From Candidatus Eiseniibacteriota bacterium (GTDB lineage: Bacteria; Eisenbacteria; RBG-16-71-46; CAIMUX01; VGJL01), in the NCBI GenBank assembly GCA_041946735.1, contig JBHGAY010000003.1, forward strand, positions 150,951 to 214,950: DNA of 64,000 bases, read 5' to 3'. Within the stretch, counting starts at the first letter, position 1, and each line of letters opens with the position of its first letter. The translations under genes were made by a program, and so were the position numbers. Of this stretch, positions 24,556 to 40,893 are shown one piece after another. Below the pieces are notes generated by a model. The model was not told the origin of the DNA. It worked only from the letters and a program-made list of their open reading frames with translations, and did no database searches.

Positions 24556-25260
24556 CTATCGGTATTGGGCCCTGATCGCCGACCAGCTTACGATCCGCAC
24601 AGAAGACGGCTCGATGGGATTGGTGACAACCACCTCGAACTGGCCGATGTTGTTGGACCATTCGCAACTGTCCATCGGGCCCAGATAGAGGCGGGTGGCT
24701 CCCTCGGGCACGATGATCTGTTGCTGGACGCCGTTCGATGTCAGGCCGTCGCCGATGAAGAACACCTGCTTCAACAACGGTGACAGCGTCAGGTAGTCGC
24801 GACTCTCTGGTGTGCCAAAATCCAAGCCCTCAGGAGCCGGAGTGTGATCCGGTTGATCGTCATTCAAGAAGACGCCGATGCAGCTCGATATCGGGCCGTT
24901 GAAGGTCGAAATCCCATTGTCCTCCCCATCCTCGTGAGGCGTCACATACCCGCCGTCGGGATGTTCCAGAGGATAATACGGATCTTGTGCCGTCCCGCCC
25001 GTCACGTTGAAGCTCATCGCCACGTCGGCCTCGAGGTGGAGGCCGGCCACCACCTCTGGGGACTCGGACGGCGAAGAATCGCAAAGGATGCCGCCGTAAC
25101 AACAACTCGCGGTGGCCCCGTCAGGCATTCCAGCCAGCCAGGGGTCCGAATGGCCCGGGATCACGACCTCGACTACCTCGGCTCTCACTGGTGTCCAGCC
25201 AGATGCCATCAGCAAAGCGGTGAGGAGAGGAATCGACCACAGGACAGCGCACGGTCTCAT
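24556..25260 (-). CDS. Secreted hypothetical protein with C-terminal SWSxIRxxYR tail
   Basis: AAAGGA RBS; signal peptide; SDPWLAG, LKQVFFIGDG and VPEGATRLYLG domain; ends EPSSVRIVSWSAIRAQYR. Confidence 0.85.
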   Translation of the reverse strand: MRPCAVLWSIPLLTALLMASGWTPVRAEVVEVVIPGHSDPWLAGMPDGATASCCYGGILCDSSPSESPEVVAGLHLEADVAMSFNVTGGTAQDPYYPLEHPDGGYVTPHEDGEDNGISTFNGPISSCIGVFLNDDQPDHTPAPEGLDFGTPESRDYLTLSPLLKQVFFIGDGLTSNGVQQQIIVPEGATRLYLGPMDSCEWSNNIGQFEVVVTNPIEPSSVRIVSWSAIRAQYR

Positions 25261-25618: not shown

Positions 25619-26134
25619 TCAGACTCTTTCGCCGTCAAGCCATGCGGCAACCCGCGCCACCGCCACCGGCACCGCACCTGCCACGGCCGGCGTCAACTCC
25701 TCGCGGATCGTCTCGAGATCGACCGCCTCGGCGACGAGGATTGCGATCTCTTCGGGCATCGTGGCGCCCACATGCCGGCCCAGCTCGAGCGCGGTCGCGA
25801 GGTCGATCGAGTGGGATCCACCCAGTGCGCGCCCCGCGGAGGCCTCTTCGACCCTGAGCGGGAACAGAGCGCCCGGGTGGCGCTGCCCAGTCCGGACGAC
25901 ATCTAGGATCAACACACGCCGGCGGCCCTGGATCAGGTCGAGCAGGTGGAAGCCGGCGACCGAGGCCTCCACGATCTCCACCCCAGGGCGCGCGGCAAGG
26001 CCCGCTGCCTCGCAAGCCCGCGCGACGACCGGCCCGAAGCCATCGTCGCTGATCAGGTCGTTACCGAGGCCGAGAACGAGAACCGGGGCGCGGACCGACT
26101 CGGCCCGAGCCCCGGTCGACGATTCCTCCGCCAT
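25619..26134 (-). CDS. Hydrogenase maturation protease (HybD/HycI family)
   Basis: VLVLGLGNDLISDDGFG, ILDVV and SH motifs; immediately downstream of the large subunit. Confidence 0.93.
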   Translation of the reverse strand: MAEESSTGARAESVRAPVLVLGLGNDLISDDGFGPVVARACEAAGLAARPGVEIVEASVAGFHLLDLIQGRRRVLILDVVRTGQRHPGALFPLRVEEASAGRALGGSHSIDLATALELGRHVGATMPEEIAILVAEAVDLETIREELTPAVAGAVPVAVARVAAWLDGERV

Positions 26135-26135
26135 C

Positions 26136-27617
26136 TCAGCAGAACCGCCGGATCGTCTCGCGCACGTCGCCATCCGGCTCATGGATCACGATCTCCATCG
26201 GCATCTTGCCGGCCGCTGCGTGCGTCGCGCATCCGAAGCAGGGATCGTAGGCGCGGAAGGCCATCTCGACCGTGTTCAGCACCTCGTCGGTGACGGCCGT
26301 CCCCTTCTTGATCAATCCGGCGGCCGCCTTCTTGATCGAGAGCGAGATGCCAGCGTTGTTGTTCGTGGTCCCGACGATCAGGTTCGCCTCCTTGATGTAG
26401 CCCTTCTCGTCGGTCTTGTAGTGGTGTGTGAGGATCCCGCGGGGCGCCTCGACGACGCCGACCCCCTCGCCGACGATCGAGGTCGGCGGCGTGTGGATCC
26501 GGTCGCTCGTGATCTCCTCGTCCTGCGCCCGCTGCGCCACGGCCTCGCACGCGAACACCATCTCGACGACCCGCGCCCAGTGGATCGCGAGGGTGGAGTG
26601 CACCGGCTTCGCCCCGCTGCCGTCGCCGGTAAGCGTCTTGTACAGCTTCTCGTACTCCGCCTGGGCGAGCGGCGTCGCCATCCCGCCGCTCACGTTCAGC
26701 CGGCTCATCGGCGTGGCACGATAGACGCCGGAGTCGCGCCCGTCGACCAGGCCCTTCCATCCCACCTTCCTCAGATACGGGTACTTGAGATAGCTGTAGG
26801 GCAGCACCGCCTCGGCGAGGTGGTCGAGGTACTGCTTCGGCTCGTATTCGGCGAAGAGCTTGCCGTCCGGGTCGACGATCCGCACCTTCCCGTCGTAGAA
26901 GGTGACCTTCCCGTTGTCGTCGACCAGGCCGATCGAGTAGGTCTCGTGCCGGAACATGTCGGAGAGGATCAGGTCGACGTACGCTTTGTTGGCGAGGACG
27001 ATCTGCTCGAAGACCCCGATCGTGGTCTTCGCGAACTCGACCATCTCCCGGCCGATCTGGATCAGCTCCTGCTGCTCCTCCTTCGTCACGCGCTTCGCCA
27101 TCCCACCCGGCAGCGCGGTGACCGGGTGGATCGCCTTGCCGCCGATGATCTGCACGACGCGCTGCCCGCGCGCCCGCTGGCGGATCACCTCGGCCCCCAG
27201 CTCGAGACCGACCTTCGCCACGACGCCGAGAATGTTTCGCTGCGCCTTCGGCGCGCCCGGTCCGACGACGAAGTCGGGACCGCCGAGCGCGTAGAAGTGC
27301 GTGGTGTGATCGCCGGCGTAGAAGCCGTTGTACATCAGCTCGCGCAACTTGCGCGCCGCGCTCGGGATCGTCACGCCGTAGACCGCGTCCGCAGCCTTCA
27401 CCGACGCCATGTGGTGCGCTTCGGGGCAGACGCCGCAGATGCGCGTCGTGATCCGCGGCATCTCCTCGACCGGCCGCCCTCGCGCGAACACCTCGAAGCC
27501 GCGCAGCTCGGGGATCTGCAGGTAAGCGTTCGCCAGCTCCCCATCGTCCCCGACGAACAGGTGGATCTTGCCGTGCCCCTCCAGCCGGGTGATCGGATCG
27601 ATCGTGATCTCGCGCAT
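26136..27617 (-). CDS. mvhA: [NiFe]-hydrogenase large subunit, group 3c (MvhA-like)
   Basis: ITRLEGHG; L1 RICGVC; EAPRG; L2 RAYDPCFGCATH followed by a cleavable C-terminal extension. Confidence 0.95.
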   Translation of the reverse strand: MREITIDPITRLEGHGKIHLFVGDDGELANAYLQIPELRGFEVFARGRPVEEMPRITTRICGVCPEAHHMASVKAADAVYGVTIPSAARKLRELMYNGFYAGDHTTHFYALGGPDFVVGPGAPKAQRNILGVVAKVGLELGAEVIRQRARGQRVVQIIGGKAIHPVTALPGGMAKRVTKEEQQELIQIGREMVEFAKTTIGVFEQIVLANKAYVDLILSDMFRHETYSIGLVDDNGKVTFYDGKVRIVDPDGKLFAEYEPKQYLDHLAEAVLPYSYLKYPYLRKVGWKGLVDGRDSGVYRATPMSRLNVSGGMATPLAQAEYEKLYKTLTGDGSGAKPVHSTLAIHWARVVEMVFACEAVAQRAQDEEITSDRIHTPPTSIVGEGVGVVEAPRGILTHHYKTDEKGYIKEANLIVGTTNNNAGISLSIKKAAAGLIKKGTAVTDEVLNTVEMAFRAYDPCFGCATHAAAGKMPMEIVIHEPDGDVRETIRRFC

Positions 27618-27626
27618 GCTTCTGCC

Positions 27627-28598
27627 CTACCCCTGCCGCCGCCGGAGCGTCGAGCCCGGCAGGCTGAAACGGTAGAAGGTTCCCACCATGTCCGGGATCT
27701 CTCCCACGAGCCGTTCGATCTCGTCGGGATCGTCCACTGCGAGCACGCCAGCCAGCGCCGAAGCCATCTTCGCTCCCTGATCCCGCACGTTCGCCGGCAG
27801 CCCATAGCAGCCGCGGCACGGCATGTTCGCCTTCACGCAGTTCGCGCCGCATCCGGCGCGCGTCGCAGGACCGAGACAGACGATTCCCTGCTCCAGCAGG
27901 CAGATCTCCGGGTCGGCGACGACCTCGTGCGGGCGGACGAACTTCGAGATCTTCTTGATGTCCTTCTTGCGCGTGCACTCCTCGCAGAGCGAGCGGGCGT
28001 CGGCGCCGAGCACCGTCCCCTTGGGCGGGAGCGGCTTGCCGTTCTTCAGGATGTCGACGACCGCGTCGACGACGAGCCCGATCTGATGCGGCTGAGGCGG
28101 GCACCCCGGAACGATGTAGTCCACGTCGACCACCTGCGCGAGCGTCCGCACCGTGTTCCACAGGTGCGGGAGGTGCACTTTGCCTTCCGGGACCTCGCAG
28201 GTCGTCTGCGGCCGCACCTTCTCGGCGTTCACCGTCGAGGGGGAGCCGTCGTAGACGTAGTCGAGGATCTGATCGCGGGTCGTCAGGTTCGCGAGCCCCG
28301 GGATGCCGCCGTCCGAGGCGCACGATCCGAACGCGCAGAGGACGACGGACTTCCGTCTCAGGAGCTGCGCGATCTCGTAGTTCTCGGAGTTCCGGATCGC
28401 GCCGTTCCATAGCGTCAGGGTGATCGAGCCGTCCTCCATCGCGCGCACGTCGTCGTACTTGAAGTCGGTTGCGCAGGGCCAGAAGACGATGTCGAAGAAG
28501 TCGGCGATCTCGAGGACCTTCAGCTCGGTGTCGAGGACGGCGATCTCGCAGCCCCCGCACGAAGCGGCCCAGTAGAGGGCGAGTTTCGGCTTGGCCAT
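27627..28598 (-). CDS. mvhG: [NiFe]-hydrogenase small subunit (MvhG-like)
   Basis: ASCGGCE, FGSCA, PGCPP, CLLEQG.VCLGPATRAGC and PCRGCYG motifs. Confidence 0.95.
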   Translation of the reverse strand: MAKPKLALYWAASCGGCEIAVLDTELKVLEIADFFDIVFWPCATDFKYDDVRAMEDGSITLTLWNGAIRNSENYEIAQLLRRKSVVLCAFGSCASDGGIPGLANLTTRDQILDYVYDGSPSTVNAEKVRPQTTCEVPEGKVHLPHLWNTVRTLAQVVDVDYIVPGCPPQPHQIGLVVDAVVDILKNGKPLPPKGTVLGADARSLCEECTRKKDIKKISKFVRPHEVVADPEICLLEQGIVCLGPATRAGCGANCVKANMPCRGCYGLPANVRDQGAKMASALAGVLAVDDPDEIERLVGEIPDMVGTFYRFSLPGSTLRRRQG

Positions 28599-28619
28599 GC
28601 TTGCTTCCCCCTCTCCCTC

Positions 28620-29126
28620 TCAGGCATGCCCGGCTGGCGCATCGGCGCCGCTGTGCTCGAGCTGCTCTTCGGCCGCCACGCGGTCGAACTCGCGATCCTC
28701 GAGCTTCAGAGGCCCCAGCGCCCGGATCTGCTCGGTGAACTCGGAGATCACCTCGGCGAACCGCGTCGCCTCGGAAGCCGAGACCCATTCGAGACGGATT
28801 CGCCGCGGATCGATCCCCATCTGCTCCGCCAGCTTCTTCGCGACCGGCAGCCGCCGCTGGCATTTGTAGTTCCCCTCGACGTAGTGACAGTCGCCCGGAT
28901 GGCAGCCGCAGACGAGCACGCCGTCGGCGCCCCGCGCGAGAACGTCGAACAGGAAGTTCGGATCGACGCGCCCGGAGCACATCACCCGGACGATCCGCAC
29001 GTTCGGCGGATACTTCATTCGCGCCGTCCCGGCGAGATCGGCTCCGGTGTAGCTGCACCAAGTGCAGAGGAAACCGACCAGATTCGGTTCGAAACCATGC
29101 CGTTCGCTCGTCTTCGTCTCGCTCAT
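28620..29126 (-). CDS. mvhD: Hydrogenase iron-sulfur subunit MvhD/FlpD ([2Fe-2S])
   Basis: ATG 29126 with ATGA overlap; FLCTWCSYTGAD, VMCSGRV and GCHPGDCHY motifs. Confidence 0.95.
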   Translation of the reverse strand: MSETKTSERHGFEPNLVGFLCTWCSYTGADLAGTARMKYPPNVRIVRVMCSGRVDPNFLFDVLARGADGVLVCGCHPGDCHYVEGNYKCQRRLPVAKKLAEQMGIDPRRIRLEWVSASEATRFAEVISEFTEQIRALGPLKLEDREFDRVAAEEQLEHSGADAPAGHA

Positions 29127-30874
29127 GAGAGGATTCCCTCGATCTCCGCGTAGATCTGCTCGTCGGTGAAGTGCAGGCCCTGGATCGCGCCGCTCGGACA
29201 GCCGGCGACGCAGGTCCCGCAGGCCTTGCAGACCGCGGTGGTGACGGCCGACACCTTCTTCTCGGGGTCGTAGGTGATCGCCCCGTAGGGGCAGAGGTCG
29301 TTGCACAATCGGCACCCGCTGCACAGGTTCTCGTCGATCGAGGCGCAGGCCGCGTCCATCTCCACCTCGCCGCGGATGATCAGCGACATCGCCTGCGCCG
29401 CCGCCGCGCCCCCCTGCGCGACCGAGTCGGGAATGTCCTTCGGCCCCTGGCAGACGCCGGCGAGGAAGATCCCGTCGGTCGTCGTGGAGACCGGCCCCAG
29501 CTTCGGGTGACGTTCGATGAACCAGCCGTCCGCGCCGACCGAGATGCCGAAGCGCCTCCCTGTCTCCTTCGCGTCGGCCTGGGCTTCGAGCGCCGTGCAG
29601 AGGATCACCATGTCGACCGGGATCTCCCGGAAGCGGCCGGCCAACGTGTCCTCGCAGCGGACGAGCAGGTGCCCTTCGTCCGTCCCGATCGAACGGACCA
29701 CCTCCGCCCCCTTGCCGCGGATCACGTTCACGCCCTCGGTCAGGATCCGTTGGAAGAACTCCTCGTATCCCTTGCCGAAGGAGCGCATGTCGATGTAGAG
29801 CTGGTACACCTCGGCGGAGGTCTTCTCCTTGACGAGGTGCGCGAACTTCAGCGCGTACATGCAGCAGACACGGCTGCAGTAGGGATGGTGCGCCTCGTCG
29901 CGGCTGCCGATGCAGTGGAGGATCGCGATGGCGCGCGGCTCGCTGCCGTCCTCGAGAACGACCTTGCCATTGGTCGAGCCGGCGGCGTTGTTCATCCTCT
30001 CGAATTCCATCGAGGTGATGACGTTCGGCAGCCGCCCGTAGCCGTACTGCTTGAGCGGCGTCGGATCGAGATCGCGGAAGCCGGTCGCAAGCACGACCGC
30101 CCCGACTTCCACCTCCTCCGTCTCCTCGACCGCCTCGTGATCGATGCATTCCTTCGGGCAGACCTGCGCGCAGACCTTGCATCCTCCGGTGCGGAAGTGG
30201 ACGCAGTACTCCGGCTGGATGTGCGGGACGTTCGGCACCGCCTGCCGGAACGGCACCGAGATTGCCGCGTTCGGCCCGAGATGCACCTCCGGGTGGACGA
30301 TCTCGCGACCCCTCGCCTCCTCCATGCGGATATGGCCGGTCGGACAGAGCGCCGCGCAAGCGCCGCAGAGGATGCAGGCGTCCGAGTCGACGGAGAACGG
30401 CGTCGTCACCGTGCGCTCGGCACCGCGCGAGGCAAAGCCGATCGCCTGCGCGCCGACGATCTCGTCGCAGACGCGCACGCACAGGCCGCACAAGATGCAG
30501 GTGTCCGTGCCCCAGCCCCAGCGCGGCTCCTCGATCCCGAGCTTCTTCCCCAGCTCGAGCAGGATCGGATGCGGCTTGCAGCGAGACATCAGCATCTCGA
30601 GGTTCAACCGGCGCGCCGCGAGAATGCGCGGGGTGTGGGTCAGGATCTCCATCCCGTCAGCGACGGGGAAGTTGCACGCCGTGACGACACGGTTGCGCCC
30701 GCGCTTGTCGAACGTCTCGACGACGCAGATGCGGCAGGCGGCGTACGGCTTGACGTACTTGAAGAAGCAGAGGGTCGGGATCTCGATTCCGAGCTGCTCC
30801 GCAGCCTGGAGGATGTACGTTCCCTCCTCCAGTGTGATCGGGCAGCCATCGATCCGGATCGTCGCCTGGGCCAT
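29123..30874 (-). CDS. hdrA: Fusion of a NuoG/HoxU-like Fe-S domain ([2Fe-2S] plus 2x[4Fe-4S]) with the C-terminal half of HdrA
   Basis: N part: IPTLC...ACRICVVE...TAC, CILCGLCVRVC, CILCGACAALCP. C part: PFRQAVP, C...CKVCAQVCP, VGAVVLATG, HCIGSRD...YCSRVCC, YIDMR, GPKDIPDSVAQG and a terminal 2x[4Fe-4S] ferredoxin. Confidence 0.9.
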   Translation of the reverse strand: MAQATIRIDGCPITLEEGTYILQAAEQLGIEIPTLCFFKYVKPYAACRICVVETFDKRGRNRVVTACNFPVADGMEILTHTPRILAARRLNLEMLMSRCKPHPILLELGKKLGIEEPRWGWGTDTCILCGLCVRVCDEIVGAQAIGFASRGAERTVTTPFSVDSDACILCGACAALCPTGHIRMEEARGREIVHPEVHLGPNAAISVPFRQAVPNVPHIQPEYCVHFRTGGCKVCAQVCPKECIDHEAVEETEEVEVGAVVLATGFRDLDPTPLKQYGYGRLPNVITSMEFERMNNAAGSTNGKVVLEDGSEPRAIAILHCIGSRDEAHHPYCSRVCCMYALKFAHLVKEKTSAEVYQLYIDMRSFGKGYEEFFQRILTEGVNVIRGKGAEVVRSIGTDEGHLLVRCEDTLAGRFREIPVDMVILCTALEAQADAKETGRRFGISVGADGWFIERHPKLGPVSTTTDGIFLAGVCQGPKDIPDSVAQGGAAAAQAMSLIIRGEVEMDAACASIDENLCSGCRLCNDLCPYGAITYDPEKKVSAVTTAVCKACGTCVAGCPSGAIQGLHFTDEQIYAEIEGILS

Positions 30875-30890
30875 CGCTCCTCCTGATCCT

Positions 30891-32930
30891 CTAGACGCTC
30901 ATCGACGCCGCGTCGGCTGCCGCCGACGCCGTTGCCGCCGCCTTGCGCTCCTTGACCGGTACCCACTGCTTGCGCGCGTGGTCTTGGACGATGTCCGCTT
31001 CCATCCGCTTCACGCGCTTGATCGCGTCGAACTTGCACACCTGGTAGCACGCGTCGCACTGAATGCACTTTGCCTGGTCGATCCGGTAGAGCCCCTTCGG
31101 CTCCCCGGAGATCGCCGTGGTCGGGCACGCCGCCACGCACTGGCCGTCTCCGATGCACGCCTCGCTGATCGCGTAACCGACGAGCGCCTTGCAGACGCCG
31201 GCCGGGCACCGCTTGTCGTGGATGTGCGCGTCGAACTCGTCCCGGAAATAACGGATCGTCGACAGTACCGGGTTCGGCGCGCTGCCGCCGAGCTGGCAGA
31301 GACTCGTGTCGATCAGCACGTTCCCGATCTCCTGCAGGGTGTCGATGTCTCCCGGCTCGCCCTCGCCCTGCGTGATCCGCTCGAGGATCGAATGGAGCAT
31401 GCGAAGGCCTTCGCGGCAGGGGAGACACTTCCCGCACGACTCCTCGATGAGGAAGTGGATGAAGTACTTCGCGACATCGACCATGCAGGAGTCCTGGTCC
31501 ATCACGATCATGCCGCCCGATCCCATCATCGAGCCGGCCTTTGTCAGTTCGTCGAAGTCGATCGGGAGATCGAGGAGCGACTCGGCCGCCTCGTCGACGG
31601 CCAGCTCGCCGCTCCGGACCATCGAGCGATGGATCTTCTCGTCGGCGGTCTCTACGATCAGCGTGCCCCCGGAAGGGCCACCGGTCTGGACCGCCTTGAA
31701 CTTCTTCTTTCCGGGGACGCCGCCGCCGATGTCGTGCAGGATCTCGCGGAGGGTGATCCCCATCGGCACCTCGACCAGGCCTGTGTTGTTGATTCTTCCT
31801 GTGAGCGCGAAGAGCTTGGTTCCCTTGGAATTCTCGGTCCCGATCGAGGCGAACCACGCCGAGCCGTTCTCGAGGATCAGCGGGACGTTCGCCCAGGTCT
31901 CGACATTGTTGAGGTTGGAAGGCTTGTCCCAGAGGCCGAACTCGACCGTGTGGACGTACTTCGCGCGCGGTTCCCCGATCTTCCCTTCGAGCGAAGCCAT
32001 CAGTGCGGTCGACTCCCCGCAGACGAACGCTCCGCCGCCCCGGCTGACGTCGATGTCGAAGGCGAAGCCGCTCCCGAAGAGATTGTCACCGAGCAGGCCC
32101 CGGGCCCTCGCCTGCTCCAGCGCAATCCGGAGGTTCTTTACCGCAAGGCGGTACTCATGGCGCACGTACACGTAGCCTCGATGGGAACCGATCGCGAAGG
32201 CGCCGATGATCATGCCCTCGATGACAGAGTGGGGATTCCCCTCCAGAACCGACCGGTCCATGAACGCCCCGGGGTCCCCCTCGTCGGCGTTGCAGATGAC
32301 GTACTTCGGCTCACCCGTCGCGTTGCGGCAAGTCTCCCACTTCTTGCCGGCAGGGAACCCGCCACCCCCGCGCCCGCGCAGACCGGACGCTTTGATCTCC
32401 TCGATCACCATCTCCGGGGACATTGCGGTCAGCGCCTTCGCCGCCGACTGGTAGCCGCCCAGCGCGATGTAGTCGTCGATCGAGTTGGGATCCATCATCC
32501 GATTCTTCCCGAGGATCAGACGCATCTGCTTTTTGTAGAAGGGGATGTCGTCCTCGAGCTCGATGCGCTTCTTCGTCGTCGGATCGCGGTAGAGCAGCTT
32601 GTGGACGATCTGGCCATGCTTGATCGTCTGTTCGAAGATGAGGTCGACATCCGCCGGCTTGATCTGCTGATAGAAGATCCCCTGGGGATGGATGACCGCA
32701 AGCGGCCCGCGCTCGCAGAAGCCGCGACAGCCGGTCAGCTTGAGACCGACCACCTCCTCGAGCTTCTCCTCCGCGATCTTCTTGCGAAACGCGTCCGCCA
32801 CCGCCTGGCAGCCGCACGCGTTGCAGCCGGTGCCTGCGCAGAGGTGGATCGAGAGGCGATTGCGGTCCTTCGCTTCGACCAAACGCGCCTGCAGCGCCTT
32901 GAGATCCTCGGGGCTCTTGATCCTCGTCAT
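30891..32930 (-). CDS. nuoF: NuoF/HydB-like FMN- and NAD(H)-binding flavoprotein subunit
   Basis: N-terminal thioredoxin-like [2Fe-2S] domain; GLRGRGGGGFP, NADEGDPGAFMDR, FVCGESTAL, GGPSGG, ESCGKCLPCREG, HIHDKRCPAGVC; C-terminal ferredoxin. Confidence 0.95.
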   Translation of the reverse strand: MTRIKSPEDLKALQARLVEAKDRNRLSIHLCAGTGCNACGCQAVADAFRKKIAEEKLEEVVGLKLTGCRGFCERGPLAVIHPQGIFYQQIKPADVDLIFEQTIKHGQIVHKLLYRDPTTKKRIELEDDIPFYKKQMRLILGKNRMMDPNSIDDYIALGGYQSAAKALTAMSPEMVIEEIKASGLRGRGGGGFPAGKKWETCRNATGEPKYVICNADEGDPGAFMDRSVLEGNPHSVIEGMIIGAFAIGSHRGYVYVRHEYRLAVKNLRIALEQARARGLLGDNLFGSGFAFDIDVSRGGGAFVCGESTALMASLEGKIGEPRAKYVHTVEFGLWDKPSNLNNVETWANVPLILENGSAWFASIGTENSKGTKLFALTGRINNTGLVEVPMGITLREILHDIGGGVPGKKKFKAVQTGGPSGGTLIVETADEKIHRSMVRSGELAVDEAAESLLDLPIDFDELTKAGSMMGSGGMIVMDQDSCMVDVAKYFIHFLIEESCGKCLPCREGLRMLHSILERITQGEGEPGDIDTLQEIGNVLIDTSLCQLGGSAPNPVLSTIRYFRDEFDAHIHDKRCPAGVCKALVGYAISEACIGDGQCVAACPTTAISGEPKGLYRIDQAKCIQCDACYQVCKFDAIKRVKRMEADIVQDHARKQWVPVKERKAAATASAAADAASMSV

Positions 32931-32946
32931 CGTCCCTCCGGCTCCT

Positions 32947-33528
32947 TCAGGAGCGGCCTTCGGCCGCGGTGGTCGCGTGCTCCGTGCCCGCCTGTTCGGG
33001 CCTCTCCGTGTCGGCGGGGGCCGCCGAGCCGGTCGCTCCGGCGGCCCTGTCGTCCTCGCGGATCGCGGCGAGCATTTTGTCGACGTCCGACACGGTCAGA
33101 TGGCCCCAGTACTTCTCGTCGGCGACGACGACCGGCCCGAGCGCGCAGGCGCCCACGCAGTTCACCGTCTCGAGCGTGAACATACCGTCCTTCGTCGTGT
33201 GGCCGCGGTCGACGTGGAGGTCGCGCTCGAGCTTCTCCACGATGCTGCGGGAGTTGCGAACATGGCAGGCGGTCCCGGTGCAGACGCATACGTGGTGCTT
33301 CCCACGCGGCTCGAGGCTGAATGCCTTGTAGAAGGTAGCTACCCCGTAGACCTGGGAGAGGGCGAGATCCATCCGTTTGCTGATCTGCTTCATCGCCTCC
33401 CGGGGGAGGTAATAGAACTCCTGCTGGACCTCCTGCAGGATCATGATCAGCGCGGTCGGCTTCGCCTCGTAGGAGGCGATGATCTCGTCGATCCGTTCGG
33501 ACATCCGATCCTGGGATTCCATCGGCAT
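32947..33528 (-). CDS. nuoE: NuoE/HydC-like [2Fe-2S] subunit
   Basis: YGVATFY, VCTGTACH and NCVGACALGP motifs. Confidence 0.95.
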   Translation of the reverse strand: MPMESQDRMSERIDEIIASYEAKPTALIMILQEVQQEFYYLPREAMKQISKRMDLALSQVYGVATFYKAFSLEPRGKHHVCVCTGTACHVRNSRSIVEKLERDLHVDRGHTTKDGMFTLETVNCVGACALGPVVVADEKYWGHLTVSDVDKMLAAIREDDRAAGATGSAAPADTERPEQAGTEHATTAAEGRS

Positions 33529-34545
33529 CTAGTCCTCCCTCACGCGCACGCCGGTGCGGCTGACGCGCGCCTCGTGCTTCTGTTCGGGGGCGAGAACGCG
33601 CGGGCTTCCTTCGCGATAGACGCGATCGCCGATCAGCATCCGACGCTGCGTCGGAAACGGGCGCGACGGGCAGGCCTCATAGCAGGTGCCGCAGCTGTTG
33701 CACTTGGTGACGTCGACGTAGCGCGGGTGCTTCTTGATCTTGACCTTGAAGTTGCCGACGTACCCCTCGACCTCCTGCACCTCCGCCATCGTCATGAGGC
33801 GGATGTTCGGGTGCTGCGCCACGGCCACCATCTTCGGCGTGAGGATGCAGGCGGCGCAGTCGAGGGTCGGGAAGGTCTTGTCGAAGTTCGCCATGTGTCC
33901 GCCGATCGAGGACTCCCGCTCGACGAGGATCACCTGGAGCCCCGCATCGGCGAGCTGAAGGGCGGTCTCGATTCCCGCGATCCCGCCACCAACGACGAGC
34001 GCGCGCGGCGTGATGTTCACGTGGCGCATCTCGAGCGGGGCGTGGAACGCGACGCGGCGGATCGCGGCGCGGATCTGCGCCGCCGCCTTGTCGGTCGCCG
34101 CGCCTCCATCGATCGTGACCCACGACACCTGCTCGCGAATGTTCGCCATGGCGAATAGGTAGCGGTTCAGACCGGCCTTCGCGACCGCCTTCCGGAACGT
34201 CGGCTCGTGCATCAACGGGCTGCACGCGGCGACGACGACCCGGTCGAGCTGCATCTCCCGGATGTCCTTCTGGATCAGCTCCTGCCCCGGGTCGCTGCAC
34301 ATGAATTTGTAGTCCCGCGAGACGACGACGTGCGGCTCGCTCTTCATCCGCCGCGCGACCTCGGCGACGTCGACGGTCTTCGCGATGTTCGTTCCGCAGT
34401 GGCAGACGTAGACGCCGATGCGCAGGGGACGGGACGGTGCGCGATCTCCGTTGCCGTTGCCGCTTCCCTTCCCGTTGCCGTTCCCGTTCCCTGCGTCGCC
34501 CGCACCGCCGCGTCCGTCCTGGGCGTTGCCGCTTTCGGGTGTCAT
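33529..34545 (-). CDS. hdrA: N-terminal half of heterodisulfide reductase subunit A (split HdrA)
   Basis: ATG 34545 overlaps the hdrB stop; IGVYVCHCGTNIA, AACSP, ANIRE, GGGIAG, FDKTFPTLDC and PRYVD..KCNSCGTCYEACP, then stop after about 45 aa. Confidence 0.92.
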   Translation of the reverse strand: MTPESGNAQDGRGGAGDAGNGNGNGKGSGNGNGDRAPSRPLRIGVYVCHCGTNIAKTVDVAEVARRMKSEPHVVVSRDYKFMCSDPGQELIQKDIREMQLDRVVVAACSPLMHEPTFRKAVAKAGLNRYLFAMANIREQVSWVTIDGGAATDKAAAQIRAAIRRVAFHAPLEMRHVNITPRALVVGGGIAGIETALQLADAGLQVILVERESSIGGHMANFDKTFPTLDCAACILTPKMVAVAQHPNIRLMTMAEVQEVEGYVGNFKVKIKKHPRYVDVTKCNSCGTCYEACPSRPFPTQRRMLIGDRVYREGSPRVLAPEQKHEARVSRTGVRVRED

Positions 34546-35420
34546 GCCGGCACCTCGCTCAGGCGACTGACGATCCGCCTGACATCGATCACCATCTGGT
34601 CGAGGAGCATCTCCTCCGCCGTGAAGCCGAGAGCGAGGCCGAGGAGCTGCGTGAAATAGACGATCGGAAGCCGGTAGGACGTCCCGAAGACCTTGTTGAT
34701 CTTCTGCTGGTACGCCTCGAGGTTCATCTGGCACATGGGGCAGGTGGTGATCAGAACTTCCGCGTCGCTCTGTACCGCCGCCTCGAGGATCTCCCGATTC
34801 AGCTTCAGCGCGACATCCTCGTAGGTCGTCATGAGCATCCCGCCGCAGCATCGAAGCTTTGCGCTGAACGGGACGACAGCGCCACCAATGGCGGCCATGA
34901 GATTGTCGAGCTGCTGCGGGTCCTCGCGATCGTCGAACCTTCCATAGGGACGGACGAGCTGGCATCCGTAATAGGGCGCGATGCGCACGCCGGTCAGCGG
35001 CCGGACGACCTTCTCGACGATCCTCTCGATGCCGTAGAAATCGACCAGGATCCCGAGGGGATGGAGCACCTCGATCGATGCCTTGTAGGAGAGCCCCACG
35101 GAGGAGAGCACCTCGTTGATCTTGTCCGCGTGCTCCTCGCCCCAGCGCATGTGCCGGTTCACCTTCGAGAGGATCGTGTAGCAGGAGCTGCAAGGGGCGC
35201 AGACGTTCATCCCCATCTTCTCGGCGTTCGCGAGGTTCCGCGCGCAGATCGAGTAGGCGGCGAGCTTGTTCATGGAGATGTAGGAGGTTGCGCCGCAGCA
35301 GTTCCAGTCGTCGATCTCGGTCAGGCCGATCCCGAGCTTCTGGAAGACGCGCCGCACCGAGACGTCATAGGGCCGGCCGGTTGCCTCGAGACTGCAGCCG
35401 GGGTAGTAGGCATATTCCAT
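34542..35420 (-). CDS. hdrB: Heterodisulfide reductase subunit B (two CCG domains)
   Basis: YYPGC, WNCCG, PCSSC, YYGC, RCCG and TCPMC motifs. Confidence 0.95.
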   Translation of the reverse strand: MEYAYYPGCSLEATGRPYDVSVRRVFQKLGIGLTEIDDWNCCGATSYISMNKLAAYSICARNLANAEKMGMNVCAPCSSCYTILSKVNRHMRWGEEHADKINEVLSSVGLSYKASIEVLHPLGILVDFYGIERIVEKVVRPLTGVRIAPYYGCQLVRPYGRFDDREDPQQLDNLMAAIGGAVVPFSAKLRCCGGMLMTTYEDVALKLNREILEAAVQSDAEVLITTCPMCQMNLEAYQQKINKVFGTSYRLPIVYFTQLLGLALGFTAEEMLLDQMVIDVRRIVSRLSEVPA

Positions 35421-35421
35421 C

Positions 35422-36018
35422 TCAGTTGTCTCCCAGCGATTCGGCTTTCTTCATGATCGCCCTCACCTCGTCGACGCGACGGATCGCCTTCGGTCTCGTC
35501 GCGAGGCGGTGGCGCCGCAACATCGTGATCGCGAAGCGTTGCAGGTCGGGGGAGAGAAGCTTCCGTGGTCCTGCCTCCAGGTAGTAGCGGAGTCCGAGCC
35601 ACAGCTCCCAGTTGCGGCCGAAGCGGCGGATGTTGCCGACGAACGCTTCGGAGAGCGCGTGCGCAGGAAATGTCCGCGGAAAGACCCCCTTCTGGGCAGC
35701 CACGCGCTTCAGCGCATAGAGGTTGTCGGTCACCCGGATCCCGACGGGGCAGCGGACGGTGCAGGCGTAGCACGACGCGCAGATCCAGATCGCGCGGCTG
35801 CGCAGGATCGGCTCGAGCATGCCGGCCCGGAACAGGGCGACGATCTGCCGCGGGGTGATATCCATCGCATGGGCGACCGGGCAGGACCCCGTGCAGCTCC
35901 CGCATTGGATGCAGTTCTTGACCTTGTATCCGTCAGGGAAGGTCGCGACCTGTTCGAGATAGGCGGCACGTAGGTCCGCTTCCTTCGGAGGGATGGCGGC
36001 AAGGGCGGCGTTGGGCAT
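35422..36018 (-). CDS. hdrC: Heterodisulfide reductase subunit C (2x[4Fe-4S])
   Basis: CIQCGSCTGSCP and IWICASCYACTVRCP motifs; GGAGG RBS before ATG 36018. Confidence 0.93.
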   Translation of the reverse strand: MPNAALAAIPPKEADLRAAYLEQVATFPDGYKVKNCIQCGSCTGSCPVAHAMDITPRQIVALFRAGMLEPILRSRAIWICASCYACTVRCPVGIRVTDNLYALKRVAAQKGVFPRTFPAHALSEAFVGNIRRFGRNWELWLGLRYYLEAGPRKLLSPDLQRFAITMLRRHRLATRPKAIRRVDEVRAIMKKAESLGDN

Positions 36019-36371: not shown

Positions 36372-36587
36372 ATGCGCAAGCAAGCCAAGAGAGGGTTACT
36401 CGAGGGTACCGAGCGCTGTCCGCACTGCCTGCAACTCCACGTCCTCGAGCAGGAGTACCGCTGCGTCCTCTGCGACGGGCCGGTCTGTCCCTTCTGTGTC
36501 GTGATCGAGGAGGGCGCCCAGGACATCCTCTGCCCGAGCTGCAGCGACGCCGAGCGACGAGGAAGAGGAAAGCCGCATGCCGGCTAG
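36372..36587 (+). CDS. Small zinc-finger protein with four CxxC motifs
   Basis: AAGGAG RBS; CPHC, CVLC, CPFC and CPSC in 71 aa; overlaps the start of ku1. Confidence 0.72.
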   Translation: MRKQAKRGLLEGTERCPHCLQLHVLEQEYRCVLCDGPVCPFCVVIEEGAQDILCPSCSDAERRGRGKPHAG

Positions 36588-37356
36588 AGCGATCTGGAAG
36601 GGTGTGCTCGCGCTCGGCGACGACATCGAGCTGCCGGTCAAGCTCTACTCCGCGGTGCAGGACCGCACGGTCCACTTCCGTCTTCTCGATTCGAAGGACC
36701 GCCAGCCGGTCGCTCAGGAGATGGTCGAGCCAGAGACGGAAGAGGAGGTCGCTGCCAAGGAGATCCGGAAGGGGGCCGAAGTCGAGCCGGGCGTGTTCGT
36801 TCTCCTGAAGGACGACGAGGTCGAGAAGCTCGAGCCGCCCGCCTCGCGAATCATCCAGATCGAGCGGTTTCTCAACGCCGGAGAGATCTCCCATCTATGG
36901 TACGAGCGGCCCTACTACCTCGGTCCGGACGAAGGGGGCGATCGGGAGTACTGGGACTTCGTCGAGGCGTTGGAGCGGACGGAGAAGGAGGGAGTCGCAC
37001 GCTGGGTCATGCGGAAGAGACGCTATCTGGGCTCGCTCAAGGCGATCGATGGTTTCCTGATGCTGATCACCCTTCGGTTCGCGGACGAGGTCATCACAGC
37101 GGAAGATCTTACCCCCCCACCCGGTCGCGATCTGGACGCCAAGGAGGTGACCATGGCGCGCCGGCTCGTGGAGGCGATGGCTGGGGAGTTCGACCCCGGG
37201 GAGTTTCATGACGAGTTCCGCGCACGGGTCCTCGAGCTGATCGAGGCAAAGAAGAAGGGAAAGAAGATCCGCGCGAGAAAGCCCGAGCGCAAGCCGCGCC
37301 CCGAGTCGCTGGCGGGCGCTCTGCAGGCGAGCCTGGCGGCGGCGAGGAAGCGATGA
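36577..37356 (+). CDS. ku: Non-homologous end-joining protein Ku (copy 1)
   Basis: RAIWKG, PVKLYSA, IRKGAEV, YERPYYLGP and TLRFADEV motifs. Confidence 0.92.
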   Translation: MPARAIWKGVLALGDDIELPVKLYSAVQDRTVHFRLLDSKDRQPVAQEMVEPETEEEVAAKEIRKGAEVEPGVFVLLKDDEVEKLEPPASRIIQIERFLNAGEISHLWYERPYYLGPDEGGDREYWDFVEALERTEKEGVARWVMRKRRYLGSLKAIDGFLMLITLRFADEVITAEDLTPPPGRDLDAKEVTMARRLVEAMAGEFDPGEFHDEFRARVLELIEAKKKGKKIRARKPERKPRPESLAGALQASLAAARKR

Positions 37357-37399
37357 TCTCCGCGGCGATACCGCCCCGTGAAGGATCGAGGAATCCCTG

Positions 37400-38437
37400 A
37401 TGCCGGCGAAGAGAGCGCAATCGAAGACGGGAAGAGACGCGGGCGCCGCCCGGGCGTCGCGCGCGAGAGCGAAGAGCAAGCCGGCGCGTGCTCGCAAGAC
37501 AACAGCGAGTCGTGCCGGTTCGCGGCGCGATCCCGAGAGGCTGCGCAAGCCGCCGCGCCGGGCCGGCAAGTCGTCCCGGGAGACAACGGCATCGAAGGCG
37601 GCGGCGGGAGTCGACCGGGCCGCCGCTGTTCGCCTCGACGAAAATCCGGAGGAGTCGACGGCGCCGCGGCCGATCTGGTCCGGGGCGATCAGCTTCGGCC
37701 TGGTCAACGTCCCGGTGAACCTGTTCCCGGCATTGCGCCCTCACGGCGTGCACCTGCGCATGCTCGATCCCTCCGGGACGCCACTCAATCGCCGCTACGT
37801 CTCCTCGAACAGTGGCGAGCCGATCGATCCGGATCATATCGTGAGGGGCTACGAGGTCGAGAAGGGGAAGTTCGTGCTCGTCAGCGACGAGGAGCTCGAG
37901 GCTCTCGAGCCGCAGCGATCGCGCGAGATCGATCTCCGCCGCTTCGTCGACGTCTCGACGATCCCGCCCTACTACTTCGAGCGTCCGTACTTCCTGACTC
38001 CGGCCGGCCGCAGCAACAAGGCGTACCGCCTCCTTGCGGCGGTGATGGAGAAGGAGGGAAAGGCAGGCCTCGCCACCTTCGTGATGCGGGAGAAGGAGTA
38101 TCTCGTCGCGATCCTCTCGGACGGCGGGATCCTGCGCGCTCAGACGCTGCGTTTCGCGGACGAGATCCGCCGCCCGCAGGATGTTGGCCTTCCGGAGCGG
38201 AAGCCGGCGCGGGCGAAGCAGGTCGCGAAGATCGGAAAGACGATCCGCGACCGCACGAAGTCGCGACTTGCCCGGGAGGATCTGGGCGACGACGTCACCG
38301 CCAAGCTCGAGAAGCTGATCGAGAAGAAGGTCGCACAGGGACGCGACATCGTGACGCTCGAGGCGACACCGGAGTCGAAGGCGGAGTTCGTCGATCTGAT
38401 GGAGGTCCTGAAGCAGCGGATGCGGGGAGCGGCGTGA
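37400..38437 (+). CDS. ku: Ku protein (copy 2) with basic N-terminal extension
   Basis: RPIWSGAISFGLVNVPVNL, IVRGYEV, YFERPYFL, AYRLL and TLRFADEIR motifs; first about 85 aa are K/R/A-rich. Confidence 0.92.
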   Translation: MPAKRAQSKTGRDAGAARASRARAKSKPARARKTTASRAGSRRDPERLRKPPRRAGKSSRETTASKAAAGVDRAAAVRLDENPEESTAPRPIWSGAISFGLVNVPVNLFPALRPHGVHLRMLDPSGTPLNRRYVSSNSGEPIDPDHIVRGYEVEKGKFVLVSDEELEALEPQRSREIDLRRFVDVSTIPPYYFERPYFLTPAGRSNKAYRLLAAVMEKEGKAGLATFVMREKEYLVAILSDGGILRAQTLRFADEIRRPQDVGLPERKPARAKQVAKIGKTIRDRTKSRLAREDLGDDVTAKLEKLIEKKVAQGRDIVTLEATPESKAEFVDLMEVLKQRMRGAA

Positions 38438-38440
38438 GGC

Positions 38441-39826
38441 TCATCGCAAGCGGTAGCCTCGAATCTTCCGCCAGAGCGTCTTCCTGTCGATCCCAAGCAG
38501 CGCCGAGGCGCGCCCGAGACGCCAGCCCGTCAAGTCCAGCACCTTGAGGATGTGCTGCGACTCGAGGGTGGCCAGCCGCAGATCGCTCGCGTCCCCGCCG
38601 TCCGTCTCGGTGGCCGGCGCCCCTCCCCGCATGAAGTGGAGATCCTCCGATCGGATCTCCGGCCCCTGGGCGAGCACGAGGGCACGCTCGAGCGTGTTCT
38701 CCAGCTCTCGAACGTTGCCGGGCCAGTTGTAGGCCTGCAACGTTTCGATGCACTCCGCCGACAGTCGTTTCAGCTCGAGCAGTTTGCGCTCGCACAACCG
38801 CCGGACGAGAACCGTAGCTAGGGACGGAATGTCTTCTCGCCGGTCGCGCAACGGCGGCACCTCGATCAGCACCACGCTCAGCCGGTAGAACAGATCCTCG
38901 CGAAAGCCGCCGGCGGCCATCGCCGCGCGCAGATCGCGGTTCGTCGCGGCGAGAATCCGCACGTCGACATGCACCGGCTCGCTCCCCCCCACCTTCGTGA
39001 CCTCGCGCTCCTGGATCACCCGCAGGAGCTTCGTCTGGATCGTGGGCGTGAGGTTGCCGATCTCGTCGAGGAAGATGGTCCCGCCATGCGCCAGCTCGAA
39101 ACGGCCGGGACGTGTCGACACGGCTCCCGTGAAGGAGCCGCGGACATGGCCGAACAGCTCGCTCTCGAAGAGCGTCTCGACGATCGCGCCGCAATCGACC
39201 GTCAGGAACGGCTTCTCGCGCCGCGCGCTCGCCCGATGGATGGAGCGCGCCACCAGCTCCTTGCCCGTTCCGCTCTCGCCGAGGATCAGGACGGTGGCGT
39301 CGGTCTGCGCGACGCGCTCGACCCATCCTCGGAGCTGCTCGATCGCTCGGCTCTCGCCGGTCAAGACCTCGGCATGCGCTTCCTCGCGGATTTGCTCCTT
39401 GAGCGCCCGGTTCTCGAGCGAGAGCGCCCGCTTCTCCAGCGCCCGGCCGACCACGAGCCGGAGGGAGTCGGCGTCGAACGGCTTCGGCAGGTAGTCGTAC
39501 GCTCCGAGGCGCATGCACTCCACCGCCGATCCGACGCTCGAATATCCCGTGATGACGATGACGTCGAGGTCGGGAGCGTCGCGATGGAGCCGTTCGAGCA
39601 GCGTCATTCCGTCCATGCCCGGCATCTTCAGATCGAGGAGGACGAGATCGAGCCGGTCGTGCTGGACCTTGCGCAATGCTTCGAGGCCGTCGCGCGCCGT
39701 CTCGACCCTGTAGTTCGAGCGTTCCAGCGCCTGCCGGCAGGAATCCCGGATCCCCTCTTCGTCGTCGACGACGAGGATCGTTCGCTGCGGCTCCATTCCT
39801 CCTCCTTCGGGTAGCCGAGCGCTCAT
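38441..39826 (-). CDS. Sigma-54-dependent response regulator (NtrC family)
   Basis: Receiver domain (LVVDDE, LLDLKMP), GESGTGKE, ESELFGH..GSFTGA, FLDEI, WPGNVREL and a Fis-type HTH. Confidence 0.96.
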   Translation of the reverse strand: MSARLPEGGGMEPQRTILVVDDEEGIRDSCRQALERSNYRVETARDGLEALRKVQHDRLDLVLLDLKMPGMDGMTLLERLHRDAPDLDVIVITGYSSVGSAVECMRLGAYDYLPKPFDADSLRLVVGRALEKRALSLENRALKEQIREEAHAEVLTGESRAIEQLRGWVERVAQTDATVLILGESGTGKELVARSIHRASARREKPFLTVDCGAIVETLFESELFGHVRGSFTGAVSTRPGRFELAHGGTIFLDEIGNLTPTIQTKLLRVIQEREVTKVGGSEPVHVDVRILAATNRDLRAAMAAGGFREDLFYRLSVVLIEVPPLRDRREDIPSLATVLVRRLCERKLLELKRLSAECIETLQAYNWPGNVRELENTLERALVLAQGPEIRSEDLHFMRGGAPATETDGGDASDLRLATLESQHILKVLDLTGWRLGRASALLGIDRKTLWRKIRGYRLR

Positions 39827-40893
39827 ACCGGCGCGACGTCCGGCTCGACGGGGAGCAGGACGCGGAAGGTCGTCCCGCTTCCGGCGGTCGACTGCGCCTC
39901 GATCTCCCCACCATGTTGCCGGACGATTCCGTAGCTGATCGAAAGTCCGAGGCCGACGCCCTCGCCGACCTCCTTCGTCGTGAAGAACGGCTCGAACACC
40001 CGAGGCAGATGCTCCTCGGGAATCCCGACTCCGGTGTCGGTGAACGCGACGCGGCAGAATCCGTCACGCTCCGAGAAGCCGCTGCGGATCGTGAGCGTCC
40101 CGCCATGAGCGCGCATCGCGTCGAGGGCGTTCATCAGGACGTTCAAGAACACCTGCTGGATTTTCTGGACGTCGATCCGCACCCATAGAGGGACCGGGCT
40201 GAGCTCCTTGCGGAGCTGGACGTTTCGCCATCCCGGATGGCGTTCGACGAGCGCGAGCGACTCGACGAGGACCTGGTTCAGATCGACCCGCTCGATGCGA
40301 GGCGGGTTCTGCCGCGCGAAGTCGAGCAGGCCGCGGACGATCTCCTTCGCCCGGCTAGCCTGCCCGACGATCTTCTTCATGTTCTCGTAGCGTGGATCGT
40401 CGGGCTGGGTCGATTCGACGAGGAGATTGCCGTAGAGGAGGATGCCGCCGATCGGATTGTTGATCTCGTGCGCGACGCCGGCCGCGAGCTGCCCGACCGT
40501 GGCGAGCTTCTCGGACTGCTGCAAGCGCTCCGCCGCGCGGAGGCGAGCTGTTTCGTCCCGCACCTGGAGCGAGGAAGCCATGCGGTTCAAGGCGGCGGCA
40601 AGCGGGCCGAGGCGCGCGAGGCGGGGACCGTCGATACGGTACTCCAGCTCACCGCGACCCCAGCGACTCGCAGCGCGGATGAGCGGCTCGTCGGACACCA
40701 CGGCGGCTCGACGGAGCAGCAACACCGGCAGGGCGCAGGCCACCGCGGCGAGCCCAGCGGCGCAGAGCCACCCTGCCGGATGCCCGCGAAGGAAGGGGGA
40801 GAGGATCCACGCCAGCAGCACGAGGACCACCGGCGGGAGCAGGAGCGCTCCCCAGGTCCTTGCCGAAATGCGCGAACCGAGCGGCCCATCCAT
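39823..40893 (-). CDS. Sensor histidine kinase (2 TM, HAMP-like, HisKA, HATPase)
   Basis: AHEINNP H-box, QVFLNVLMNA N-box, DTGVGI, FEPFFTTK and GLGLSISYG motifs. Confidence 0.95.
   Translation of the reverse strand: MDGPLGSRISARTWGALLLPPVVLVLLAWILSPFLRGHPAGWLCAAGLAAVACALPVLLLRRAAVVSDEPLIRAASRWGRGELEYRIDGPRLARLGPLAAALNRMASSLQVRDETARLRAAERLQQSEKLATVGQLAAGVAHEINNPIGGILLYGNLLVESTQPDDPRYENMKKIVGQASRAKEIVRGLLDFARQNPPRIERVDLNQVLVESLALVERHPGWRNVQLRKELSPVPLWVRIDVQKIQQVFLNVLMNALDAMRAHGGTLTIRSGFSERDGFCRVAFTDTGVGIPEEHLPRVFEPFFTTKEVGEGVGLGLSISYGIVRQHGGEIEAQSTAGSGTTFRVLLPVEPDVAPV

Follow-up and report, generated by a model that had tools for sequence, protein, structure and literature searches.

A 64,000-nucleotide window of a Candidatus Eiseniibacteriota genome (GenBank assembly GCA_041946735.1, contig JBHGAY010000003.1, positions 150,951 to 214,950), which is the whole stretch of DNA analyzed here, carries at positions 25619-36018 an operon in which a heterodisulfide reductase gene, hdrA, is split by a nuoE-nuoF-nuoG' module and is followed by genes of an Mvh-type [NiFe] hydrogenase. 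Ten open reading frames (ORFs) without internal stops, all on the minus strand, succeed one another in the order hdrC, hdrB, hdrA N-half, nuoE, nuoF, nuoG'::hdrA C-half, mvhD, mvhG, mvhA, and protease. The intergenic gaps range from -4 to +21 nucleotides, the protease gene excepted. The GC content at third codon positions of these ORFs (0.81-0.94) is of the coding type, Pfam and NCBIfam matches are consistent with the label of each gene, and the GC content of the operon is that of the surrounding window. The first-pass annotation of this DNA, which had described ten co-directional and tightly packed genes in this order, was thus borne out by the ORFs, the gaps, and the family matches. The host genome is 4.9 Mb and 95% complete, and the window lies on its contig C23.

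In the direction of reading, hdrC (35422-36018) encodes 198 amino acids with two [4Fe-4S] motifs; its best NCBIfam model is TIGR03290, at a score below the cut-off of that model. It is followed by hdrB (34542-35420; 292 amino acids), with two CCG domains, all ten non-cubane cluster cysteines, and Gln for the methanogen His after Cys153. In the hdrA N-half (33529-34545; 338 amino acids), the model NF040770 and alignment delimit an N-terminal domain, a CxxC motif, the GxGxxG that binds flavin adenine dinucleotide (FAD), the first half of the inserted ferredoxin domain, and a variable tail. The gene nuoE (hydC or bfuC; 32947-33528; 193 amino acids) encodes a thioredoxin-like [2Fe-2S] protein, and nuoF (hydB or bfuB; 30891-32930; 679 amino acids) a protein with an N-terminal [2Fe-2S] cluster, a site for flavin mononucleotide (FMN) and NAD, a [4Fe-4S] cluster, a Cys/His B2-Zn site, and a C-terminal 2x[4Fe-4S] domain. 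The ORF at 29123-30874 is a fusion. Its residues 1-185 (30320-30874) form the nuoG' or bfuA domain with clusters A1, A2, and A4 and without the His-ligated A3, and its residues 196-583 (29123-30289) contain the inserted ferredoxin domain's second half, the remainder of the FAD domain, which includes the CCMYxxK lysine (Lys343), and a C-terminal 2x[4Fe-4S] domain. The remaining genes are mvhD (28620-29126; 168 amino acids; [2Fe-2S] adaptor, PF02662), mvhG (27627-28598; 323 amino acids; small hydrogenase subunit, best NCBIfam match VhuG), mvhA (26136-27617; 493 amino acids; [NiFe] large subunit with CxxC at Cys61/64 and Cys460/463 and a cleavable C-terminal extension), and a hydrogenase maturation protease gene (25619-26182; PF01750, TIGR00072 above cut-off). 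The first ATG of the latter overlaps mvhA by 47 nucleotides; the second, at 26134, leaves a 1-nucleotide gap, fits better, and is the likely start.

On the model NF040770, HdrA-N aligns to positions 1-255 and the 583-residue fusion, by its residues 196-581, to positions 262-640. The two ORFs jointly cover positions 1-640 except six, which amounts to a complete HdrA domain set. Therefore, nuoE, nuoF, and nuoG' interrupt one hdrA. Alignment to the solved HdrA chains of 8RVU and 5ODC places the break in the loop that separates the two cysteine motifs of the inserted ferredoxin domain, so this is not a single-chain HdrA with that domain intact. Since nuoG' is fused to the HdrA C-half, the link between the Bfu and Hdr modules is partly covalent.

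A split gene in one assembly can arise artificially, and the layout might then be no more than a broken gene or an assembly artefact. However, the identical split was found in 31 loci of several phyla, the fusion protein occurs in hundreds of clusters, and the ligands on both halves are invariant. Because the layout is conserved, the artefact is refuted, and we attach practically no credence to it. The loci come from a scan of species genomes, and the counts refer to the best 80 (77 loci) of the 319 relatives that it returned. The insert separates the HdrA halves in 31 of these loci. HdrA is unsplit in 42, for the most part within an hdrCBA-mvhDGA-protease operon that is otherwise the same but lacks nuoEFG, and 4 further loci have the fusion but are cut off by the end of a contig. 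The complete set of ten genes was detected in 27 of the 31 insert-bearing loci; the remaining four stop at a contig edge. The carriers are named as Eisenbacteria, Acidobacteriota, Ignavibacteria, Zixibacteria, Calditrichota, and others, with Aminicenantes and KSB1 among the protein matches; within the phylum the distribution is patchy, the fusion being present in 6 of the 201 genomes that were searched. When proteins were searched with the junction region, 609 and 941 clusters matched at E<=1e-40. Motifs were counted on 240 listed junction homologues, one of which is the protein of this operon, and among these matches the full architecture was present in 234 and the Rossmann motif of the HdrA N-half in none.

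Four unrooted trees were computed, that of HdrA-C by a quick IQ-TREE run and those of MvhA, HdrB, and HdrA-N by FastTree. In all four, one branch (99-100%) separates the insert-bearing from the intact loci, and the parts of the operon therefore travel together. The nearest named relatives in the trees are Candidatus Eisenbacteria metagenome-assembled genomes (MAGs). In five loci (L069, L073, L077, L120, and L121), the insert is longer by about 3 kb or more, and in L069, L077, and L121 it includes DRTGG, CBS or Fe-S, PHP, and kinase genes together with a separate HydD-like gene. These longer inserts suggest that a whole Bfu operon may once have landed in hdrA and was later trimmed. The BfuB of L121 has the canonical CGEE and PPYPA, which gives at least three BfuB types in the same slot. 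A BfuA graft at the inserted ferredoxin domain was also seen on double-HdrA proteins of 1087-1101 amino acids and on HdrA-C::MvhD (P0251, P0277, P0263, and P0244), the order of HdrA being permuted in P0244; from these proteins, the graft point on HdrA appears to be reusable. One Acidobacteria MAG holds split and unsplit Mvh-Hdr operons as a natural pair (L002 and L017), and in L033 a second mvhDGA set lies beside the first operon on the opposite strand.

The fusion carries three ferredoxin motifs ahead of its FAD domain. The first two lie within residues 6-184, which are colinear with WorA (9MQX_A). An AlphaFold2 model of the single-chain fusion had a mean predicted local distance difference test score of 59.6, and only its BfuA part is reliable; this confident part superposes on WorA at 2.1 Å over 188 columns. 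The HdrA half of the model is poor, at about 25 Å root-mean-square deviation from solved HdrA, and is evidence neither way. Because the first two motifs pair within the WorA-like domain, one unpaired motif remains on each HdrA half: Cys282, 285, 288, and 292 of HdrA-N (33670-33702, minus strand) and Cys224, 232, 235, and 239 of the fusion (30158-30205, minus strand), which has no partner motif in its own chain. The former is present in all 24 complete HdrA-N ORFs of insert-bearing loci, and the latter in 236 of the 240 homologues listed. On the simplest reading, the two unpaired motifs would complete the inserted ferredoxin domain between the two chains.

The nearest solved relatives of the operon's BfuB are the bifurcating HydB and WorB proteins (8A6T, 7T2R, and 9MQX). 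Its GDPGAFM, AFVCGE, and GGPSG motifs and the B1, B4, and B5 motifs are kept in all 27 complete homologues, and the Cys and His ligands of B2/Zn are invariant in the 21 aligned BfuB rows (21/21). With the FMN site and clusters B1-B5 in BfuB and cluster C1 in BfuC (cysteines 83, 88, 124, and 128), the module has the cofactor make-up of the Bfu (HydABC-type) family. Residues listed for bifurcating enzymes in Losey 2020 are present as Ala222, Met224, and GGPSG 417-421, equivalent to A/E232, M234, and 427-431 of Thermotoga maritima at an offset of 10. The A3 motif of BfuA was found in 0 of 33 loci and in 0 of the 240 listed proteins. Without A3, BfuA lacks the entry point of NiFe-Bfu. Electrons are likely to come in at A4, next to the junction, as they do in WorA, whose low-potential donor enters there (PMC12318220). 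The absence of A3 and A5 and the entry by A4 are those of a type 2 Bfu; its partner, however, is joined to BfuA in one chain, a trait of type 1, and the module fits neither type cleanly. NADP specificity was considered from the CGES motif, which is also found in the NADP-using HydB of Thermoanaerobacter kivui, and was rejected, since the NAD-linked WorB shares this motif.

On the HdrA side, Lys343 aligns with the lysine of the methanogen CCMYxxK motif (8RVU/5ODC), and this motif is present in 238 of the 240 homologues listed. A lysine at the flavin N5 marks the bifurcating FAD in BamE (bioRxiv 10.64898/2026.04.10.717634). With the complete domain set, the FAD site, and the conserved lysine, the protein has the features of an HdrA-type bifurcating flavoprotein; to judge from the residues, both bifurcating cores retain their signatures. 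MvhA is nearest to MvhA/VhuA, with 5ODC_F as its closest solved relative (401 bits), and has both CxxC motifs, and mvhD and hdr genes lie in the same operon, as in group 3c hydrogenases; its VhuA model score is 395, below the cut-off of 800. Both Ni-binding motifs are present in all 31 insert-bearing loci with a complete gene. A genome search for hyp genes, recommended by the first-pass annotation, located hypA, C, D, E, and F on contig C1.

The large subunit is also related to that of NiFe-Bfu (7T2R_D, 358 bits), and the genome search pointed to no dedicated substrate of HdrB. Both points agree with an arrangement in which HdrA would be a non-bifurcating wire between Mvh and Bfu, giving a NiFe-Bfu-like enzyme (H2 to NAD+ plus ferredoxin) with HdrBC as a side branch. 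We regard such an arrangement as very improbable, given the near-universal lysine motif. Moreover, hdrB and hdrC are kept with full ligands, including the ten cysteines of HdrB, in 27 of 27 insert-bearing loci, and they share the history of the remaining operon.

What HdrB might reduce was sought in the genome. No comA was found in the 95% complete genome, where synthesis of coenzyme M and coenzyme B was of interest to the first-pass annotation; coenzyme B synthesis was not searched. The same genome gave no match for dsrA, the RnfD family, or acetyl-CoA synthase. The earlier remark that no dsrC is visible in the window stands for the window, whereas the genome search detected a DsrC-family gene on another contig. 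There, at C31:24858-25160 and downstream (L079:10790-14464), a DsrC-like CX10C protein, a membrane protein, a CCG/4Fe-4S DsrK-like protein, and a cysteine desulfurase are encoded in one run. Strong DsrC-like matches occurred in 22 of 40 fusion-carrying genome entries searched, some of which may be the same genome, and dsrA in 2 of the 40. Among 32 further genomes from the same order, 17 had the DsrC-like gene; of the 5 other genomes of the phylum that have the fusion, only 2 did, and the protein is therefore without a specific link to the operon. DsrC as a dedicated substrate of HdrB was rejected on these grounds, and the DsrC-like protein is one candidate among several.

In methanogen HdrA, the inserted ferredoxin domain is the docking site of FmdF and MvhB and the expected electron exit (PMC12350162). 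The low-potential output of class II benzoyl-CoA reductase is fed from this domain, at which BamBC docks (bioRxiv 10.64898/2026.04.10.717634). Since the fusion point is the low-potential exit of HdrA, the two modules are likely to operate in series rather than as a loose hub. The first-pass annotation had envisaged a single soluble complex linking H2, NAD(H), ferredoxin, and a disulfide; the BfuA::HdrA-C fusion and the signature residues in both cores speak for its single complex, whereas its hub probably gives way to a series. That the products form a single complex of some sort is very probable, the link being in part covalent. More specifically, we propose, at chances that we consider about even, that the locus encodes an MvhADG-HdrABC-type enzyme whose HdrA is split by a BfuABC module fused at its ferredoxin exit, and that the ten products form one soluble complex that bifurcates twice in series in the H2-oxidizing direction.

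In such a complex, the two HdrA halves would re-assemble, and the unpaired cysteine motifs would rebuild the inserted 2x[4Fe-4S] domain across the chains. Electrons from H2 would pass from MvhA through MvhG, the C-terminal clusters of HdrA, and MvhD to the FAD, as in methanogens. The high-potential electron would leave through HdrC and HdrB to a disulfide or persulfide, and the low-potential electron would pass through the rebuilt ferredoxin domain to A4, A2, and A1 of BfuA and on to B1, as in WorABC. BfuBC would then split the incoming low-potential electrons between NAD+ and ferredoxin (Fd). The net reaction predicted, with RSSR and RSH for the disulfide and the thiol, is 4 H2 + 2 RSSR + NAD+ + 2 Fd(ox) -> 4 RSH + NADH + 2 Fd(red) + 3 H+. 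Wor-Bfu shows strict coupling of NAD and ferredoxin with a donor near -520 to -560 mV (PMC12318220) and is thus a precedent for a Bfu module that takes a low-potential donor.

The potentials E' of NAD and ferredoxin are -280 mV and -500 mV, respectively (Schut et al. 2022, PMC9304861). The equilibrium H2 of the double bifurcation was computed to be about 72-fold lower than that of plain Mvh-Hdr, independent of the disulfide potential. The computed H2 threshold fell from 67 to 0.9 Pa at a disulfide potential of -140 mV, and from 1.5 kPa to 21 Pa at an assumed -220 mV. The computed cost is that the ferredoxin yield per H2 is halved compared with plain Mvh-Hdr.

Several observations weigh against H2-driven double bifurcation, and some of them concern BfuB. 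The Nqo1 tyrosine that serves as reference for its third signature presumably lies in GAGAY. For this signature (Phe, not Tyr, at T. maritima position 367; Losey 2020), there is no clean map: the number leads to Ser357 and the description to Phe302, which would fit. In addition, Asp595 replaces one cysteine of the C-terminal BfuB clusters, as Asp does in 7 of 27 relatives, and this exchange could weaken ferredoxin reduction. An insertion of about 25 amino acids directly after GGPSG (31584-31661, minus strand; 23 of 27 homologues) is not in the solved BfuB structures examined. Such divergence from characterized BfuB would suit a single bifurcation, at HdrA, with the fused module as a plain diaphorase through which low-potential electrons drain to NAD(P)+ uncoupled from ferredoxin. 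Nevertheless, the usual Cys stands at the Asp595 position in 16 of the 27 homologues and, at a longer spacing, in 4 more. Furthermore, the C-terminal ferredoxin-docking domain, B5, and the B2/Zn ligands are kept, unlike in non-bifurcating NuoF, which lacks them. A plain diaphorase is thus improbable in our view.

Other difficulties for double bifurcation lie in HdrB and in the sampling. The methanogen His, which we take to be a cluster ligand in methanogen HdrB, is replaced by Gln in 26 of the 27 insert-bearing loci. BamD is described with five Cys plus His, which fits a ligand role of this residue (bioRxiv 10.64898/2026.04.10.717634). The HdrB of this operon scored 200 bits with the coenzyme B-coenzyme M reductase model, below the cut-off of 345, and is not classed as such a reductase. 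Because of the Gln and the low score, the chemistry of HdrB may differ. All named carriers of the split gene found here are MAGs, and the tree sample was chosen by likeness to the protein of this operon.

The host physiology raises further doubts about an H2-oxidizing double bifurcation. No Rnf or group 4 [NiFe] enzyme that would spend ferredoxin on ion pumping was found in the genome, and the need for the enzyme is not obvious because separate HydABC, Stn-like, and Flx-Hdr systems are encoded there. Moreover, the direction of electron flow is not readable from the sequence. The same wiring might run mainly in reverse, or take up no net H2. Bfu would then confurcate NADH and reduced ferredoxin into the inserted domain, and HdrA would pass the electrons to HdrB for disulfide reduction or, with thiol oxidation, to H2, as in a cell that ferments or lives syntrophically. 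Bfu is indeed the confurcating input in class II benzoyl-CoA reductase (bioRxiv 10.64898/2026.04.10.717634), and group 3 hydrogenases are reversible (HydDB table). By calculation, reverse running is favourable at H2 below a limit of about 1-220 Pa that varies with the disulfide potential, and an H2-consuming lifestyle is not evident, since neither acetyl-CoA synthase nor dsrA was found. However, double confurcation to H2 requires an H2 level about 70-fold lower than plain Mvh-Hdr does, and the genome offers simpler options for H2 evolution (HydABC on contig C8 and a group 3b-like enzyme on contig C1). We rate reverse running as a serious but rather unlikely alternative.

Besides the operon's own, the host genome has four homologues of the Bfu/Nuo F subunit. 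On C8 (L081), an operon for an [FeFe] HydABC includes a sensory [FeFe]-kinase gene, and a Stn-like Bfu operon lies on C71 (L082). On C5 (L080:105-6765), a second hdrCBA set with intact HdrA is followed by genes for an MvhD-domain fusion, a Fer4_22 protein, and an NAD-binding protein, which is a Flx-Hdr-like arrangement. A scan for promoters and terminators gave 0 promoter-like sites and terminator-like sites at the chance level, none of them after the protease gene. Just downstream (24556-25260, minus strand), a 234-amino-acid protein with a signal-peptide-like start and no Pfam match is encoded. Two Ku-domain genes stand in tandem, divergent from the operon, at 36577-38437 (plus strand), and a histidine kinase and sigma-54 response regulator pair lies about 2.4 kb upstream of the operon at 38441-40893 (minus strand).

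In its full form, the proposal of H2-driven double bifurcation states that the low-potential output of the HdrA FAD would be hard-wired through a two-chain ferredoxin domain into the FMN and Fe-S centres of Bfu, as the first enzyme of this kind. In many uncultured sediment and wetland lineages, single-digit-pascal H2 would then suffice for ferredoxin reduction, or higher H2 would allow potentials far below -600 mV, with an undescribed disulfide or persulfide as sink. We hold this tentatively, at a confidence just short of even. If it is true, uncultured anaerobes could make reduced ferredoxin from very low H2, and this would suggest how non-methanogenic bacteria with group 3c hydrogenases exploit trace H2. 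Three of the four enzyme ends have simple, assayable substrates (H2, NAD, and ferredoxin). The enzyme would test whether the low-potential electron of HdrA can be split again and would offer a fixed acceptor for studying the HdrA mechanism. The locus is also an annotation trap, as hundreds of the fusion proteins are labelled just 'heterodisulfide reductase subunit A' or '4Fe-4S protein'.

Compared with known systems, the operon shares with MvhAGD-HdrABC of hydrogenotrophic methanogens (5ODC and 8RVU; group 3c) and its unsplit bacterial relatives (such as L025 and L017) the six subunits plus protease, the same order in the 3' and 5' parts, all HdrA domains, the bifurcation lysine, and the ten HdrB cysteines. 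Unlike in that enzyme, HdrA is in two chains, the exit is taken by BfuA instead of free ferredoxin, MvhB, or FmdF, the HdrB His has become Gln, and no comA was found in the genome. WorABC of Acetomicrobium mobile Wor-Bfu (9MQX; type 2 Bfu) likewise has a BfuA with A1, A2, and A4 and no A3, with entry of the low-potential donor at A4. WorB is the nearest BfuB in the FMN/NAD region, with GGGAFVCGES and PRxKY(I/V)H common to both. However, the HdrA C-half here replaces the zinc finger and C-terminal helix that recruit WorS, and the donor would be a second bifurcating flavoprotein and not an aldehyde oxidoreductase. NiFe-HydABCSL of A. mobile (7T2R) also joins H2, NAD, and ferredoxin by a [NiFe] hydrogenase and BfuABC, but its entry is by A3, which is not in the BfuA of this operon, and it has no HdrABC or MvhD.

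The closest precedent for the combination is Bam[(BC)2DEFGHI]2 of Geobacter metallireducens (Bam-Bfu; bioRxiv 10.64898/2026.04.10.717634), the paper on which states that the coexistence of HydBC and HdrA modules in one enzyme was previously unreported. An enzyme with two bifurcating modules therefore has a precedent in this class II benzoyl-CoA reductase, which contains the same pair. In the parts covered of Schut et al. 2022 (PMC9304861), Bam-Bfu is the HdrA-linked Bfu and no Mvh-Hdr-Bfu is described. In our literature search, no publication was found that describes an HdrA split by a Bfu insert, and the relevant passages of PMC5736913, PMC7325909, and bioRxiv 10.1101/2024.09.26.615249 do not mention one. 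As far as these sources reach, the dual HdrA and Bfu idea and the parts are known, and the reversed, covalent wiring seen here was not found in print. Bam-Bfu has HydBC-type and HdrA-type modules in series in one soluble complex, as predicted for our operon, and like the latter it has an MvhD homologue, an HdrBC-like high-potential arm, and a non-methanogenic host. In contrast, BamE is a fused HdrA dimer, and the BamD site is occluded, the electrons being passed to an electron-transferring flavoprotein. No AOR-family gene is among the ten described here, and the locus is thus not that of a class II benzoyl-CoA reductase. In Bam-Bfu, the inserted ferredoxin domain carries the tungsten enzyme, and Bfu feeds in on the MvhD, or input, side, whereas here a [NiFe] hydrogenase occupies the input side and Bfu is attached covalently to the inserted domain of a split HdrA. 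If our proposal is correct, the enzyme would mirror the one bifurcating enzyme with two modules whose structure has been described.

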